Below are positions 34,983-51,369 of a DNA stretch of 64,000 nucleotides, piece by piece; positions within the stretch are counted from its first letter, which is position 1, and each line of letters begins with the position of its first letter. The translations under genes and the position numbers were made by a program. Origin of the DNA: a virus (Duplodnaviria > Heunggongvirae > Uroviricota > Caudoviricetes). Location of the stretch: IMG/VR virus record IMGVR_UViG_3300037071_003200, positions 1 through 64,000 of that record; one strand, 5' to 3'. The notes beneath the pieces were generated by a model that worked only from the letters and a program-made list of their open reading frames with translations, was not told the DNA's origin and did not search any database.

Positions 34983-37900
34983 ATGGCAGCCGTCAAGGTC
35001 ATCCGGTTTCTCCGCCGTCTCTTCGACGTCGATGACACGAACATCGGCGACCAGAAGTTCCTGCAGACCCGCCCGGCACTTCTCGGCGAGCCGGGCTTCC
35101 CTGGTGGCTGGATCCACGAGTACGTCGATCCTCCCGCTGGCGGTAGTGGGGCGGGCGCGACTGGGGCGACTGGCCCGCAGGGGCCGGATGGCATCGACGG
35201 CACGATCGGAGTCGACGGCATCACGGGCGCTACTGGTCCGACCGGTCCTCCTGGTGCGACGGGCGATGGCAATACGGGCGCGTCTGGATCAGACGGCGCG
35301 ACAGGGGCAACGGGCTCTGTTGGAGGAACGGGCTCAACCGGTTCTGGATCTACAGGCGCCACGGGCGTCGGTGAGACGGGCGCGACGGGCACGAGCGGGG
35401 CTACGGGTGCCACCGGTCCTCCTGGCATGGACGGCCTCGGTGGAGGCCCAGGGAGCTCAGGCGCGACTGGAGCCACCGGCTCGCAGGGAACGACCGGGCC
35501 AACAGGTGCTCAGGGAAACACGGGAACAACGGGAGCGACCGGTGCGACGGGTCCGCAAGGTCTGGACGGTCTGGACGGTCCGCCAGGACGTACAGGCGCC
35601 ACGGGCAACACGGGATCCACTGGCCCGACCGGGGTAGGCAATACGGGCCCGACCGGGCCCCAGGGCGTTGATGGCCTCGAGGGTGGCCTGGGAGGCACAG
35701 GCCCGACTGGAGCGACGGGCGTCGGCAACACGGGGAGCTCTGGCCCGACCGGGAACACCGGTACGACCGGCGCGACAGGTCCCACTGGCCCGCAGGGACT
35801 CGACGGCCTGGAAGGGCCTCGGGGAGGCACGGGCATCACGGGTGCGACCGGAGTGGGCAATACGGGGAATACGGGAACCACTGGTGCGACAGGACCGCAA
35901 GGTCTGGAGGGCCAGGACGGCAACGACGGAGCCACGGGAGCGACCGGGCCGCCCGGAGCTGCGAGCAGCCAGGGCGCGACCGGAAACACGGGCGCGACTG
36001 GAGCGACGGGCGCTGGTACCACCGGAGCGACAGGAGCCACCGGCCCGCAGGGACTCGATGGACTCGATGGAGGTCCCGGCCCGACAGGGATCACCGGCCC
36101 GACCGGTGTGCCCGGCGCGACCGGCAACACTGGCAATACGGGCACGACTGGCCCGACGGGCTCCACTGGTCCGCAAGGTCTCGATGGACTCGAGGGACCA
36201 CGCGGCCTCACGGGCTTCACGGGAACGACGGGCGCCACCGGCAACACGGGCAATACGGGAGCCACCGGATCGACCGGCCCGCAGGGCAACGACGGGATCG
36301 ACGGACTTCCTGGGACGACGGGATCGACCGGGGCAACCGGCAATCAGGGGAACACTGGCGCGACCGGTACGACCGGCGCGACGGGCCCGCAAGGTCTTGA
36401 TGGCCTGGACGGAGGTCCTGGCCAGACCGGAACCACTGGCGCCACCGGCCCACAGGGGACAACGGGTCCGACGGGGACCCAGGGCACGACCGGGAACACG
36501 GGCAACACGGGCGCGACAGGGCCAGCGGGCACTGACGGAATCGACGGCACCCAAGGATTCACTGGCCCGCAGGGCACCACCGGTCCGACGGGGACGCAGG
36601 GCACAACAGGCCCCACGGGTGCTCAGGGCTCCACCGGCAATACGGGCGCCACTGGGAACACTGGGGCTACGGGCTCGACTGGTCCACAAGGTCTGGACGG
36701 GTTGGACGGTGGGCCTGGTGCGACAGGACCAACTGGGATCACGGGCGCCACGGGTACCCAGGGATCGACCGGCAACACCGGGAACACCGGGACGACGGGG
36801 CCGACCGGAGCTACCGGACCGCAAGGACTGGACGGCCTCGAGGGACCGCGTGGTCTCACAGGCTTCACGGGTACGACGGGCGCCACAGGATCGACCGGCC
36901 CCCAGGGCCTCGATGGGTTGGACGGTGGTCCAGGAGCGACCGGCAGTACCGGTCCGCAGGGATCGACTGGCAACACCGGAGCAACTGGGATCACCGGGGC
37001 GACCGGCGTCCAGGGAAACACCGGGGCGACGGGCAACACGGGGAACACAGGAACGACGGGAGCGACCGGGCCAGCTGGTCTCGACGGCCTGGACGGCGTT
37101 CAGGGATTCACCGGCCCGACCGGAATCACCGGCGCCACGGGTGCCCAGGGCTCGACGGGGAACACGGGCGCGACAGGCAACACAGGCGCGACCGGGGTCA
37201 CTGGGCCGCAGGGCTTGGACGGACTCGAAGGCCCACGCGGATTCACCGGCCCGACAGGCATCACCGGAGCGACAGGCGTTCAGGGGACAACGGGATCCAC
37301 TGGCCCCGCGGGCAACGATGGAATCGACGGTCTCCCTGGAGCGGCCGGGACAACCGGCCCGACCGGAGCCGCAGGGAACACGGGCAACACGGGCAACACG
37401 GGCAACACCGGAACCACCGGCCCGACAGGAACGCAGGGAACCACTGGACCCACTGGGCCGGCGGGGCTCGACGGTCTGGACGGAACGAACGGAGCAACCG
37501 GGAGCACCGGGCCAGCGGGAGCAACCGGCAACACGGGCGCCACTGGAAACACGGGGGCCACCGGGAATACCGGGAACACAGGGCCAACGGGCTCCACCGG
37601 CCCCGAGGGCACGCCCGGCCTCGATGGTGCTGCTGGCTCCACCGGCCCGACGGGGATCCAGGGGACGACCGGGTCAACTGGGCCCACGGGGCCGACGGGC
37701 GACGCTGGGGCTGCCGGAGCCACCGGCTCAACCGGAGCGACCGGAGCCACGGGTGACACCGGATCCACAGGCACAACCGGCAGTACGGGTTCGCCGGGCG
37801 GTGGCGTCACCATCGAGTATCTGTTCGACAACAGCACGACGAACGCCGATCCTGGCAGTGGGGATTTGCGTATCACCGACGCCGACGTGTCGCTCGCGAC

Positions 37901-39701
37901 CAGCCTGGCCGTTTCGGACACGGATCGCTTCTCTACGAATGTCAGCGACCTCTTGGAGTATTTGGGCTTTCTCGGCCAAGTACGCATCCATAAGCGTCAC
38001 GACCTCTCGGCCTGGGCTGTCTACGAGGTCGTCGAAGCCGCGGATGGAGGGGCTTGGCACGCCATTGACGTCACCCACATTGACTCATCTGGGAGCGCGC
38101 CGTTTACCAACGGTGACCTCATCGTCCTTACGTTCACACGAAAGGGAGTGCCCGGCAGCGAGGGCGCTGCCGGAGCGACTGGAGCTACTGGGTCGACCGG
38201 CAACACGGGCGCGACGGGTGCTACCGGCCCGCAGGGACTGGATGGTCTTGAGGGCGCGGTAGGGCGTACGGGCGCGACGGGCGCTCAGGGGGCAACGGGC
38301 AACACCGGCGCTACTGGAAACACTGGAAACACTGGCGCCACAGGTGCCACCGGGCCGCAAGGACTCGATGGGCTCGAGGGCGCCGTCGGTCGCACGGGCG
38401 CCACTGGGGTCGGGAACACGGGCGCGACGGGTCCCCAGGGACTCGATGGCCTCGATGGGGCTCCAGGGAAAGGCCCTGCTGTCACGATCGGCGGGAACAC
38501 GGCGGGTGCCGGCGCGCTGATCTCCACCGGCACGATGACGCTCGCGGGCGGCAACGGCATCACGCTCTCGCAGGCGGGCAACGTCATCACGATCTCTGGT
38601 GGTGGCGGCGGCGGCAACTTCTCCGGCGGCGTCTCGAACCTCGGCAACACGGCTGGCTCGACCGGCATCACCGGAAGCCAGATGGTGCTGGTGGGTACCG
38701 GCGTCATGTCTCTCTCGCAGTCGACCGGCGCGAACGGGGGAACGATCTCCATCTCCGCTCCCGCGACGAGCTCGCTCTCTGCGACGGGGGCCGTCTCCAT
38801 CTCGACCAACGTGAGCACGATCTCGATCGGCGCTCCCAACTCGAGCCTGATGTCGGGCACCGGACAGGTCTCGATCGAGACCAACGGCTCCACGATCTCG
38901 ATCGGCGTCCCCAACGCGCTTCTCTCCTATCGCTGGATCGAGGACAGGCTGCTCATGGGTGCCACTCAGGGGATCGGCGCGAGTGCGGCTACGCAGACGA
39001 CGGTGACGGCGTGGGTGATGCCGATGTCGTTCCCGAACGATCTCGCCTTCAACAACCTGCTCCTCGCGGCCCACAACTCGTTCTCGTCCGCGACGACCTC
39101 GATCTCGTCGGTCAACTACTCCTTCTCAATGGGCGCGTCGGTCGGCTTCTACACGCTGAACGACTCCACGATGTCGCTGGTCACGAGCTTCTCCAACTCG
39201 CTCGGCTACTCGAACGCGACCGCCGCGAACGTGACGAACATGAGCCTCACCGCTCGCGTCGGCTACGGCGGATCGTCCACCACGAAGTCGACGCAGGGCG
39301 GCGCGAACATGACGCAGATCATGTCCTCGATCAACTCCGTCCGGCAGATCCCGATGAACTGGACGACGATCTCGAACACGCTGACGCGCGGTCAGTATTT
39401 CGCGGTCGTTGCGTTCTCGGCGCTGACCGCTGGCGCGAACCAGGCATCGCTCTCGCAGGTCGGCTTCGTGTCCAACTTCTCCATCATCGGCTCCGCGATC
39501 AACCCGCCCGAGTTGATGCAGAACACGGCGTCCGTCACGAGTCCGTATCCGTTCCTCGGGCAAGCCACGCTGGTCAACTCCTCCAACTCGCTGATGCCGG
39601 TCAGCTTCAACACGTCGAAGATCACGACGGCGACGGCGATCGCGAACTCGACCAAGTTCCAGTCCATCTGGATGCGGATCTACTCTTCGCACTCGAACTA
39701 G
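34983..39701 (+). CDS. Giant collagen-like fibre protein (1572 aa) with Gly-X-Thr repeats and a C-terminal beta-rich domain
   Basis: GGAGG ribosome-binding site. About 1000 aa of uninterrupted Gly-X-Y triplets dominated by [15 protein letters not shown] with recurring [13 protein letters not shown] punctuation, a short globular insert, a second collagen stretch, then about 400 aa that are Ser/Thr/Asn/Gly-rich. Confidence 0.85.
35130..37800 (+). repeat. Coding tandem repeat (9-nt periodic Gly-X-Thr collagen-like repeats)
   Basis: GGN-NNN-ACN periodicity. The recurring unit encodes ...[16 protein letters not shown]... A second block lies at about 38160-38470. Confidence 0.8.
39670..39701 (+). 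repeat. 32-nt junction repeat, copy 1 (encodes the fibre C-terminus ...[10 protein letters not shown])
   Basis: GGATGCGGATCTACTCTTCGCACTCGAACTAG. 26/32 identical to 42811-42842. Confidence 0.6.
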
Positions 39702-39711
39702 GAGCGCCCTG

Positions 39712-50678: not shown

Positions 50679-50791
50679 CCAAGGTGAAACTAAAAGTGGT
50701 GAGCATCAAGACCACAAAGGTCGATACGCGCAAGTGGCCTGACGACTTTCGCGGCTTCGGCACGAACGTCCGCCCGAAGAAGCAGAAGTGA
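50675..50791 (+). CDS. Small basic peptide (38 aa)
   Basis: GTGA overlaps on both sides. Confidence 0.2.
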   Translation: MTKVKLKVVSIKTTKVDTRKWPDDFRGFGTNVRPKKQK

Positions 50792-51369
50792 GCTTCGACG
50801 AAGCCGAGTGGTGGGCGGACTGCGCGAACACGCTCCACGAGGAGCAGAAGCAGCTCGTGTACGCGACGCGCATGGGCCTGATCGCGAACTGGTCATGCGC
50901 GCATCCACCTGAGTTCGACATCGAGGGACGCTCGGTGCTCGACATCGGCGGCGGCCCCGTCTCCCTCCTACTGAAGTGCGTGAACCGAGGGCGCTGCGTG
51001 GTAGTCGACCCGAGTGACTTCCCACTGTGGGTGTTCGAGCGCTACCGCCACTGCAAGATCGACTTCTGGCACGGGCCGGCGGAGGAGATCACCGACGAGA
51101 AGCTGCACTTCGACGAGGCCTGGATCTACAACGTGCTCCAGCACGTCGGCGACCCGGCCGAGGTGATCGAGAGAGCTCGCAAGCATGCGAGCACCGTCCG
51201 CGTCTTCGAGTGGATCGACATCGACCCGTACCCCGGTCACCCGCATCGTCTCGAGCGCGAGGGGCTCGACGAGTGGCTTGACGGTCACGGATTCGTCGCC
51301 CAGCTCAACGAACGTGGCTGCGTCGGGACGGCGTACTACGGCGTGTTTCAGGGTGCGCTGACCGACTAG
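50788..51369 (+). CDS. Class I SAM-dependent methyltransferase
   Basis: GTG start. Motif I VLDIGGGPVSLLL. 193 aa. Confidence 0.65.
   Translation: MSFDEAEWWADCANTLHEEQKQLVYATRMGLIANWSCAHPPEFDIEGRSVLDIGGGPVSLLLKCVNRGRCVVVDPSDFPLWVFERYRHCKIDFWHGPAEEITDEKLHFDEAWIYNVLQHVGDPAEVIERARKHASTVRVFEWIDIDPYPGHPHRLEREGLDEWLDGHGFVAQLNERGCVGTAYYGVFQGALTD

Follow-up and report, generated by a model that had tools for sequence, protein, structure and literature searches.

A threonine-rich collagen-like fibre and a candidate virion glycosylation cassette within the structural operon of an uncultured tailed phage

What glycosyltransferases and methyltransferases are doing among the virion structural genes of a tailed phage, close to the gene of a very large collagen-like fibre, is the question raised by the stretch analysed here, the 64,000 nucleotides at positions 1 to 64,000 of IMG/VR record IMGVR_UViG_3300037071_003200 (Caudoviricetes), hereafter the window. 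A preliminary description had proposed that two enzyme loci, one between terminase and portal (15481-25245, locus 1) and one at the head-tail junction (44643-51369), assemble a glycan on a virion protein, either the fibre encoded at 34983-39701 or the capsid. In the comparison presented below, one glycosyltransferase of GT-B type and its partner S-adenosylmethionine (SAM) methyltransferase are associated with Thr-rich collagen genes in viral contigs. The recurrence of this conserved pair near similar fibres in unrelated phages suggests, at the level of gene content, that phages sugar-coat such fibres.

With glycine at every third residue, as expected of a PF01391 member, the fibre protein holds 322 Gly-X-Y triplets (counted in runs of at least four), and the longest unbroken run comprises 198 triplets (aa 348-941). 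Threonine occupies Y in 189 of the 322 triplets (59%), and X is chiefly Ala, Pro, Asn, Leu, Thr or Ser, which bears out the Gly-X-Thr dominance claimed in the preliminary description. The likeness to the Bacillus anthracis exosporium protein BclA drawn there holds for this repeat composition, since the fibre has a Gly-X-Thr-dominated collagen region of BclA type, but not for the ends of the protein: Pfam finds the Collagen family alone in the fibre, and neither a globular C-terminal nor an N-terminal targeting domain of BclA type was detected. The remainder of the protein consists of a 58-aa N-terminal anchor, of which contig L011 has a near-identical copy in its 1600-aa fibre; a globular insert of ~110 aa (aa ~942-1054), which recurs in L252, a Chloracidobacterium contig, and in the collagen minor-tail proteins that L002 and L003 encode; and a beta-rich C-terminal region of ~400 aa, which has 241 relatives in metagenomes, matches no Pfam or PHROG family and gave a monomer AlphaFold2 (AF2) model with a predicted local distance difference test score (pLDDT) of 53, too low for a fold search. 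Relatives of this C-terminal region occur in Saccharibacteria and Patescibacteria assemblies.

The glycosyltransferase that recurs with such fibres is the GT4-like GT-B enzyme 49354 (enzymes are named here by their start coordinates). Its E-x7-E motif reads EPFGGVAVE, with E284 and E292 invariant in 13 sequences. Profile matches in the PDB are to alpha-1,2-glucosyltransferase 7fg9, the best solved match, BH4 glucosyltransferase and PimA; they cover residues ~180-365 only, and the N-terminal acceptor half is without a solved relative. Homologues were found on 80 viral contigs, dereplicated to 56 IMG/VR representatives with GC contents of 0.31-0.68, and co-localisation was counted in the 34 that have at least 5 kb on both sides, taking as a collagen run at least 10 uninterrupted Gly-X-Y triplets. 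Such a run lies within 5 kb of the GT-B gene in 22 of these 34 (65%) and within 10 kb in 27 (79%), at a median distance of 1.7 kb, mostly upstream and on the same strand. Of 120 random viral loci (1.11 Mb), just one contains a run of this kind, which corresponds to a binomial P of ~4e-36, or 4e-20 when the upper bound of the background rate is used. The threshold is conservative, as L010 is missed despite runs of 9, 7 and 6 triplets. Besides the methyltransferase, no protein family is common to more than 7 of the 56 GT-B neighbourhoods, and the collagen repeat is therefore the sole common neighbour.

The association extends to the composition of the repeats. As a control, 118 viral collagen-like loci were sampled by a pattern that ignores X and Y, regardless of GT-B. 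Collagens linked to GT-B have a median Thr-at-Y fraction of 0.53, with 35 of 41 at 0.4 or above (0.59 in the window fibre), versus a median of 0.13, with 25 of 118 at 0.4 or above, for viral collagens in general (Mann-Whitney p 5e-11). The GT-B enzyme thus goes with the Thr-rich class in particular. The methyltransferase adjoins GT-B in ~12 of the 56 representatives, and in three contigs the two are fused in a single open reading frame (ORF) with the methyltransferase at the N-terminus (L035:9413-11134, L036:4913-6736 and L057:5279-7024). Extra C-terminal extensions occur on the GT-B ORFs of L075 and L082. Among bacterial contigs L216-L264, collagen-like genes lie within 10 kb of about half of the Candidatus Saccharibacteria GT-B homologues. 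Among cultured phages, a GT-B homologue is carried by Synechococcus myoviruses only. In one of these, Synechococcus phage ACG-2014f, a 2-oxoglutarate (2OG)-Fe(II) oxygenase lies next to the pair; such an oxygenase is found in 1 of the 56 neighbourhoods and was rejected as a general companion of the cassette.

Relatives of the window, gathered via the capsid protein and via the glycosyltransferases, show which genes accompany the fibre. In L011, a homologue of the window gene at 34070 is followed by the 1600-aa fibre, a 454-aa protein, a GT-A enzyme, a 111-aa protein, an inserted ORF, an FkbM-like methyltransferase, a Cys-rich protein, GT-B, a methyltransferase, another methyltransferase and the adaptor. 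Identities to the window are 90% for GT-A, 93% for the 111-aa protein, 80% for the FkbM-like enzyme, 82% for the Cys-rich protein, 59% for GT-B, 64% for the methyltransferase and 40% for the adaptor. Fibre, GT-A, 111-aa protein, FkbM-like enzyme, Cys-rich protein, GT-B and methyltransferase succeed one another as in the window, so fibre and enzyme sub-cluster travel together at the head-tail junction. The stretch 46161-49357 is 80-93% identical to L011:7071-9577, and the flanking GT-B, methyltransferase and structural genes are 40-64% identical, a pattern that suggests recent horizontal exchange of this sub-cluster. The inserted ORF of L011 (8176-8766, 196 aa) occupies the slot of the window's helix-turn-helix protein 47748-47969 and, from its motif GFWDGEGS, has the look of a LAGLIDADG homing endonuclease. 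Fibre and cassette occur in three genomic settings: the head-tail junction (window, L011), the minor-tail module (L002, L003, L010) and the baseplate/fibre module of ACG-2014f. In L002 and L003, GT-B and methyltransferase stand side by side, with the gene of a collagen-like minor-tail protein a few kb upstream, and at the head-tail junction of L006 and L007 there are two Thr-rich collagen proteins with a different GT2.

Other relatives have a bare arrangement. In L212 and L213 the adaptor comes immediately after the homologue of 33388, with no fibre at the head-tail junction, and the terminase-portal gap is ~2.3 kb in L004 versus 10.8 kb in the window; both enzyme loci are therefore insertions into contiguous blocks, as had been supposed. 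On whether the protein is a head fibre or a tail fibre, the observations point in different directions. The gene sits between capsid-proximal genes and the head-tail adaptor; however, the internal domain is common to the minor-tail collagens of L002 and L003, and the tail module of the window is without a fibre gene. In the lineage of the window, the entire block of fibre genes has apparently been relocated to the junction of head and tail. Within 58836-62851, no fibre or receptor-binding gene lies between the 438-aa protein and the peptidase-like protein, the gap being 846 bp. The equivalent slot in L003 (4169-14189) holds a collagen fibre, two large proteins, a GT-B and a methyltransferase.

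Further enzymes accompany the pair (Table 1). The AF2 model of GT-A 46161 reaches a pLDDT of 91, and Foldseek matches it at E ~1e-8 to GT-A enzymes, among them COLGALT1, LH3, Mimivirus enzymes, STIV A197 and polypeptide GalNAc-transferases, although a direct Pfam scan of the protein gave no match. Collagen and mucin GT-A enzymes modify hydroxylysine or the Ser/Thr of mucins. The resemblance of 46161 to COLGALT1, LH3 and the Mimivirus collagen enzymes is a generic GT-A fold likeness (template-modelling score ~0.55, 11-18% identity), and it is uninformative on the acceptor. GT-A 44643 aligns with the 46161 family and has the DxD Asp in common with it; profile-profile comparison of this family with that of GT2 24499 gave a probability of 6.6%, an uninformative value given how shallow the alignments are. 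Searches of methyltransferase 50788 and GT-A 46161 against the PDB with phmmer returned nothing useful. The FkbM-like enzymes 47953 and 20975 are paralogues (37% identity, E 1e-24) that match the FkbM family independently and are thus FkbM-like, but not confirmed members, since curated cut-offs are not reached (TIGR01444, 21.4 and 19.9 bits vs 37.7; PF05050, 17 bits vs 22.7).

In total, the window holds 8 glycosyltransferase candidates (5 of them solid), 6 methyltransferase candidates (2 at or above a curated cut-off) and 1 PIG-L deacetylase, close to the earlier inventory of about 7, 6 and 1, which had missed 29493-30146 and included several genes that fall below cut-offs. The evidence is firm for GT-B 49354, GT2 23286, GT2 24499, GT-A 46161, methyltransferase 50788 and PIG-L 19111; moderate for GT 15481, GT-A 44643 and GT-A-like 29493, through PHROG matches, and for methyltransferase 48594; and weak for 21695, 20069, 45526 and FkbM-like 20975 and 47953. 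Thus, of the enzymes first listed for the head-tail locus, the GT-B, GT-A 46161 and methyltransferases 50788 and 48594 stand, 44643 has a PHROG match only, 45526 is weak and the FkbM assignment is below cut-off; the zinc-ribbon proteins are small Cys-rich ORFs for which a zinc ribbon is possible. Locus 1 had been read as four GT-A enzymes, a PIG-L protein and two methyltransferases, a reading that is retained for both GT2 enzymes, PIG-L and, by PHROG, 15481, and weakened for 21695, 20069 and FkbM-like 20975, all below threshold. Across both loci, hidden Markov model searches gave matches to PF00534, PF00535, PF13704, PF02585 and PF08242, and to PF13578 at its cut-off, with FkbM, 21695 and 20069 under their thresholds. 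All glycosyltransferase, methyltransferase and deacetylase candidates are without transmembrane segments and predicted soluble.

Table 1. Features of the window discussed in the text, with the evidence for each assignment (E, expectation value)
Feature	Position	Strand	Evidence and remarks
tRNA-Ile (GAT), tRNA-Met (CAT)	11610-11868	+	upstream of terminase
Terminase large subunit	13497-15284		
GT-A-like glycosyltransferase	15481-16167	+	phrog_14945 E 2.4e-11; after terminase; homologues in L004, L006-L008, L213, L214
tRNA-Leu (CAG), tRNA-Tyr (GTA)	16870-17015	-	inside locus 1
PIG-L/LmbE-type de-N-acetylase	19111-19674	+	PF02585 E 8.6e-7, 29.9 bits vs 28.2; His-x-Asp-Asp as APHGDDETL
SAM methyltransferase candidate, below threshold	20069-20596	+	PF13489 E 2.6e-4; motif I VLDYGCG
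FkbM-like methyltransferase, below threshold	20975-21685	+	PF05050 E 0.0068; TIGR01444 E 8e-4; real start probably near 21190
GT-A candidate (weak)	21695-22429	+	PF00535 E 0.0086, below cut-off; VQDDDC; conserved in L213-L215
GT2 glycosyltransferase	23286-24110	+	PF00535 E 1.4e-9; probable start 23400
GT2 glycosyltransferase	24499-25245	+	PF13704 E 1.1e-11
Portal	26083-27984		
MuF/protease-like protein	27959-29533		
Small GT-A-like protein	29493-30146	+	phrog_854 "glucosyltransferase" E 7.2e-19; no Pfam match; homologues in L004-L008, L212, L213, L215
Major capsid protein	31478-33289		35% identical to Arthrobacter, Gordonia and Microbacterium phage capsid proteins
Major-tail-protein-like virion protein	33388-34044	+	phrog_792 E 3.3e-21
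Collagen-like fibre, 1572 aa	34983-39701	+	Pfam Collagen PF01391 E 1.6e-119
Polysaccharide lyase, likely virion-associated depolymerase	39712-41406	+	PF14099 E 1.1e-37
461-aa protein	41413-42798	+	no Pfam/PHROG match; N-terminal domain paralogous to 43936-44646 (30% identity, E 2e-12)
364-aa protein	42845-43939	+	no Pfam/PHROG match
236-aa paralogue of the 41413-42798 N-terminal domain	43936-44646	+	
GT-A glycosyltransferase candidate	44643-45362	+	phrog_12406 glycosyltransferase E 1.1e-6; phrog_1574 E 3.5e-11
SAM methyltransferase candidate (weak)	45526-46158	+	phrog_6636 E 4.8e-4; partner of 44643-45362
GT-A fold glycosyltransferase	46161-46892	+	D82-x-D84 and H203 invariant; relatives match Anp1/GT2/GT21
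111-aa protein	46892-47227	+	homologues in L011 (93%), L017, L014, L004, L006
Small helix-turn-helix protein	47748-47969	+	PF04545 Sigma70_r4 E 9.6e-6; C-terminal part of ORF 47208-47969
FkbM-like methyltransferase, below threshold	47953-48507	+	TIGR01444 E 2.7e-4
SAM methyltransferase (Methyltransf_24)	48594-49079	+	PF13578 E 1.4e-5, score exactly equal to cut-off
Small Cys-rich protein, possible zinc ribbon	49076-49357	+	4-nt overlap with neighbour on each side
GT-B (GT4-like) glycosyltransferase	49354-50481	+	PF00534 E 1.2e-14, 54.6 bits vs cut-off 26.4
SAM methyltransferase (Methyltransf_12), conserved GT-B partner	50788-51369	+	PF08242 E 4e-7
Head-tail adaptor	51390-52469		
Tape measure protein	54161-58375		
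Dit-like protein			after tape measure
438-aa protein			after Dit-like protein
Peptidase/endolysin-like protein	60998-62851		

The window has a GC content of ~64%, nearly all convincing ORFs lie on the + strand, and it is part of an uncultured tailed, siphovirus-type, high-GC phage, most likely of an actinobacterial host, its structural genes including a capsid protein akin to those of actinophages. Megablast of 30000-52000 against phage genomes gave zero matches, and the phage is therefore without a close cultured relative. Flanked by terminase, portal, capsid, adaptor and tape measure genes, the enzyme loci are embedded in the virion structural operon; the late-operon genes between capsid and adaptor lie on one strand, tightly packed and with 4-nt overlaps. 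A promoter and terminator scan of 33000-52500 found sites at a frequency not above chance.

Several neighbours of the enzymes deserve mention. The only exact-protein match of the lyase 39712-41406 is on a 3.8-kb Logan contig, and no functional name came out of PHROG scans of this lyase, of the two ends of the fibre, of the 111-aa protein or of the Cys-rich protein. A family of ~105-111-aa proteins, to which the 111-aa protein belongs, recurs beside collagen fibres (L011:7807-8142; L017:9618-9953, directly upstream of GT-B; L014:6118-6435; L006:14364-14687 and 19346-19660; L004:14166-14492), and might be a fibre assembly or accessory factor. Locus 1 also contains, at 17214-19114, an SPFH/Band-7 membrane protein (PF01145 E 2e-22; phrog_200 E 4e-48) with two small single-pass membrane proteins, and, between two of its glycosyltransferases, an HNH endonuclease-like ORF (~22430-23019, PF13392 E 4e-4), probably a mobile homing element, of which L003:19372-19920 is a 60% identical copy. 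Two of the four tRNA genes lie inside locus 1, and the + strand ORFs 16225-16716 and 16556-17026 were rejected as genes because they overlap these two minus-strand tRNA genes and have low-complexity translations. An RtcB RNA ligase (3368-4684, PF01139 E 5e-64), encoded upstream of the structural genes and close to tRNA genes, may serve tRNA repair against host anticodon nucleases.

Not all of these enzymes follow the fibre. In L213-L215, terminase and portal are separated by locus 1 (15481, PIG-L, FkbM-like, 21695, 23286 and 24499), and the examined stretches contain no collagen run; the 44643+45526 pair is a mobile two-gene cassette in L209-L212, likewise with no collagen in the stretches examined and upstream of the MuF-like gene in L212; and the lineage as a whole retains GT 15481 and 29493. 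Since relatives without the junction fibre carry locus 1 and the 44643+45526 pair, these are systems separate from it. The proposal that both loci build a glycan on a virion protein is consequently kept for the link between fibre and GT-B/methyltransferase, through co-localisation, Thr-rich enrichment and L011 synteny, and abandoned as regards one common fibre pathway. The locus 1 enzymes, 15481, 29493 and the 44643+45526 pair probably act on other virion proteins. A candidate acceptor, from its composition, is the major-tail-like protein 33388-34044, whose C-terminal tail is Ser/Thr/Pro-rich ('PPSASCASGSVTPGS'), with similar tails in the L004 and L006 homologues. Mycobacteriophage glycans were reportedly found attached at the C-termini of capsid and tail-tube subunits (Freeman et al. 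2023).

These observations can be accommodated by a late operon with at least two cytoplasmic systems of virion-protein glycosylation and methylation, A for the fibre and B for other virion proteins, an explanation to which we give an even chance of being right. In the mechanism that we infer, system A at the junction of head and tail genes would comprise the fibre, the depolymerase-like and unannotated proteins and then the enzymes, namely GT-A 46161, FkbM-like 47953, methyltransferase 48594, the Cys-rich protein, GT-B 49354 and methyltransferase 50788. The GT-B enzyme, aided by its partner methyltransferase, would put O-linked, partly O-methylated sugars on threonines in the stalk during cytoplasmic folding of the fibre, and the adjacent GT-A and methyltransferases would extend or cap the glycan. 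The donors would be host nucleotide sugars, because the window is without sugar-synthesis genes, including those for rhamnose or anthrose. Such a glycan might contribute to fibre stability, shield the fibre from proteases or antibodies, or tune adsorption. System B would consist of GT 15481, GT-A-like 29493, the terminase-portal locus (PIG-L, FkbM-like and three GT-A enzymes) and the 44643+45526 pair, and would decorate other virion proteins, for instance the Ser/Thr-rich tail of 33388-34044, as in mycobacteriophages. More generally, and more tentatively, at somewhat less than even confidence, we propose that a GT4-like GT-B, often adjoining or fused to a SAM methyltransferase, is a widespread and undescribed phage cassette that O-glycosylates the threonines of Gly-X-Thr fibres and methylates the sugars on them, occurring in cyanomyoviruses, actinophages and other uncultured phages, and perhaps beside collagen-like proteins of Saccharibacteria. 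The window phage would be its most elaborate example, with a methylated, possibly partly de-N-acetylated oligosaccharide on the 1572-aa fibre.

A number of points weigh against a cassette dedicated to collagen fibres. The control loci, both random and collagen, fall short of the GT-B loci in length and were collected in scan order. GT-B is present at 0 of the 118 sampled viral collagen loci, and the cassette therefore serves a minority of phage collagens; conversely, ~20-35% of viral GT-B loci are without a long collagen run nearby. The 25 chromosomal Nocardia homologues have no convincing collagen nearby, four of them having a borderline, Thr-poor run of 10-12 triplets, so the GT-B family is not collagen-tied everywhere. 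In the window itself, ~9.6 kb of other genes separate fibre and GT-B. The nearest solved GT-B relatives, a glucosylsucrose synthase and BH4 glucosyltransferase, act on small molecules or sugars and not on proteins, and the alignment to them covers the donor-binding half alone. Finally, all of the support is genomic: the link is one of gene neighbourhood and could reflect co-residence in hypervariable host-recognition islands.

The strongest rival to fibre glycosylation, though in our judgement an unlikely one, is virion glycosylation that bypasses the fibre: the enzymes would modify capsid or tail-tube proteins only, in the style of Che8 and Corndog, and adjacency to the fibre would reflect a shared variable region. 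The occurrence of locus 1 and the 44643+45526 pair in relatives without a junction fibre is what this explanation would predict, and it agrees with the conserved Ser/Thr-rich C-terminal tail of the major-tail-like protein, with the known phage cases, which concern capsid and tail tube, and with Gordonia phage Sixama, where glycosyltransferases lie in the structural operon and no collagen gene is annotated in the region seen. However, it leaves unexplained why GT-B lies near collagen in 65-79% of unrelated viral contigs, why these collagens are Thr-rich and why the other neighbours are not conserved.

Somewhat less probable still is that the enzymes modify the host envelope or an extracellular polysaccharide during infection, to exclude superinfection or mask receptors. 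Glycosyltransferases in tail-fibre islands are usually read in this way, as in pelagimyophages and freshwater actinophages (PMC7029224, PMC10202952), and both the polysaccharide lyase in the same module and the Nocardia chromosomal homologues without convincing collagen nearby would suit it. Yet the enzymes are all soluble, no flippase, polymerase or lipid-carrier glycosyltransferase was found in the window, the genes lie within the late structural operon and not beside lysogeny genes, and the specificity for Thr-rich collagen is left without an account. Hypermodification of phage DNA with glycosylated and methylated bases against restriction is very improbable: DNA glycosylation is commonly proposed for phage glycosyltransferases, and 7fg9, the best solved GT-B match, resembles an enzyme of Rhizobium phage RL38J1 to which DNA 5-hydroxycytosine glycosylation has been assigned (PMC13326640), but the annotated parts of the window hold no dCMP/dUMP hydroxymethylase, thymidylate-synthase-like or nucleotide-kinase genes, the enzyme genes lie in the structural and not the replication module, the methyltransferases belong to types that modify small molecules or sugars (Methyltransf_12/23/24, FkbM-like), and the collagen association would go unexplained.

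Fibre glycosylation by the GT-B/methyltransferase pair, the reading preferred here, has parallels in both phages and spores. Mycobacteriophages Che8, Corndog and Myrna glycosylate both the capsid and the tail tube with their own glycosyltransferases (PMC12363180, summarising Freeman et al. 2023), and between portal and protease Corndog encodes one O-methyltransferase, a pair of glycosyltransferases and a putative N-acetylglucosaminyltransferase (PMC4351075). As in the window, where locus 1 lies between terminase and portal, soluble phage glycosyltransferases and O-methyltransferases are thus placed inside the structural operon. In contrast, the window's enzyme set is far larger (8 glycosyltransferase and 6 methyltransferase candidates and a deacetylase), the mycobacteriophage acceptors are capsid and tail tube and not a collagen-like fibre, and none of the five window glycosyltransferases compared by tblastn with 50,697 phage records matched a mycobacteriophage at E 1e-5 or better.

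For the modification proposed for the fibre, the nearest model in mechanism is Clostridioides difficile SgtA, encoded beside bclA3, which O-GlcNAcylates Thr in GPT collagen repeats (PMC7157674), that is, a glycosyltransferase gene adjoining a Gly-Pro-Thr collagen gene. The likeness is one of gene arrangement and repeats; BclA3 is a spore-surface protein and not a phage protein, and SgtA combines GT-A and TPR domains whereas the collagen-linked enzyme of the window is a GT4-like GT-B with a methyltransferase partner. The collagen region of B. anthracis BclA, which shares the Gly-X-Thr composition of the window fibre and is likewise of spore and not phage origin, is densely O-glycosylated with an oligosaccharide that ends in 2-O-methylated anthrose (PMC10050317, PMC6222408). 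Among phages, the nearest arrangement is that of gp015-gp019 in ACG-2014f (NC_047714, L009, 5184-10660), a Thr-rich collagen repeat protein, a hypothetical protein, a methyltransferase, a GT-B and the 2OG-Fe(II) oxygenase. Its methyltransferase gp017 is 45% identical to 50788-51369 and its GT-B 34% identical to 49354-50481, but ACG-2014f is a T4-like cyanomyovirus of low GC, with one glycosyltransferase and one methyltransferase only, placed in the baseplate/tail-fibre module. The oxygenase beside its collagen gene recalls prolyl/lysyl hydroxylation.

That a phage can glycosylate its own virion with enzymes of the structural operon is already established; what would be new is a GT-B/methyltransferase cassette tied, as gene neighbourhoods indicate, to Thr-rich collagen fibres across unrelated phages. 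To our knowledge, the demonstrated cases of phage virion glycosylation are so far confined to the capsid and tail-tube proteins of a few mycobacteriophages, and our literature search found no paper linking a phage glycosyltransferase to a collagen-like fibre. In mycobacteriophages, virion glycosylation blunts antibody recognition, which is relevant to phage therapy. The idea is directly testable because cultured Synechococcus phages carry the cassette, and, if it is true, GT-B and fibre would provide a defined enzyme-substrate pair for glycosylated collagen-like materials. Glycosylated virion fibres would then be far commoner among phages than the few mycobacteriophage cases suggest, and phage glycosylation would extend to the host-recognition apparatus and to phages with widely differing hosts, among them abundant marine cyanophages. 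A reason would also be at hand for the use of threonine in many bacterial and phage collagens where animals have hydroxyproline, as glycosylated Thr could stabilise or protect the helix.

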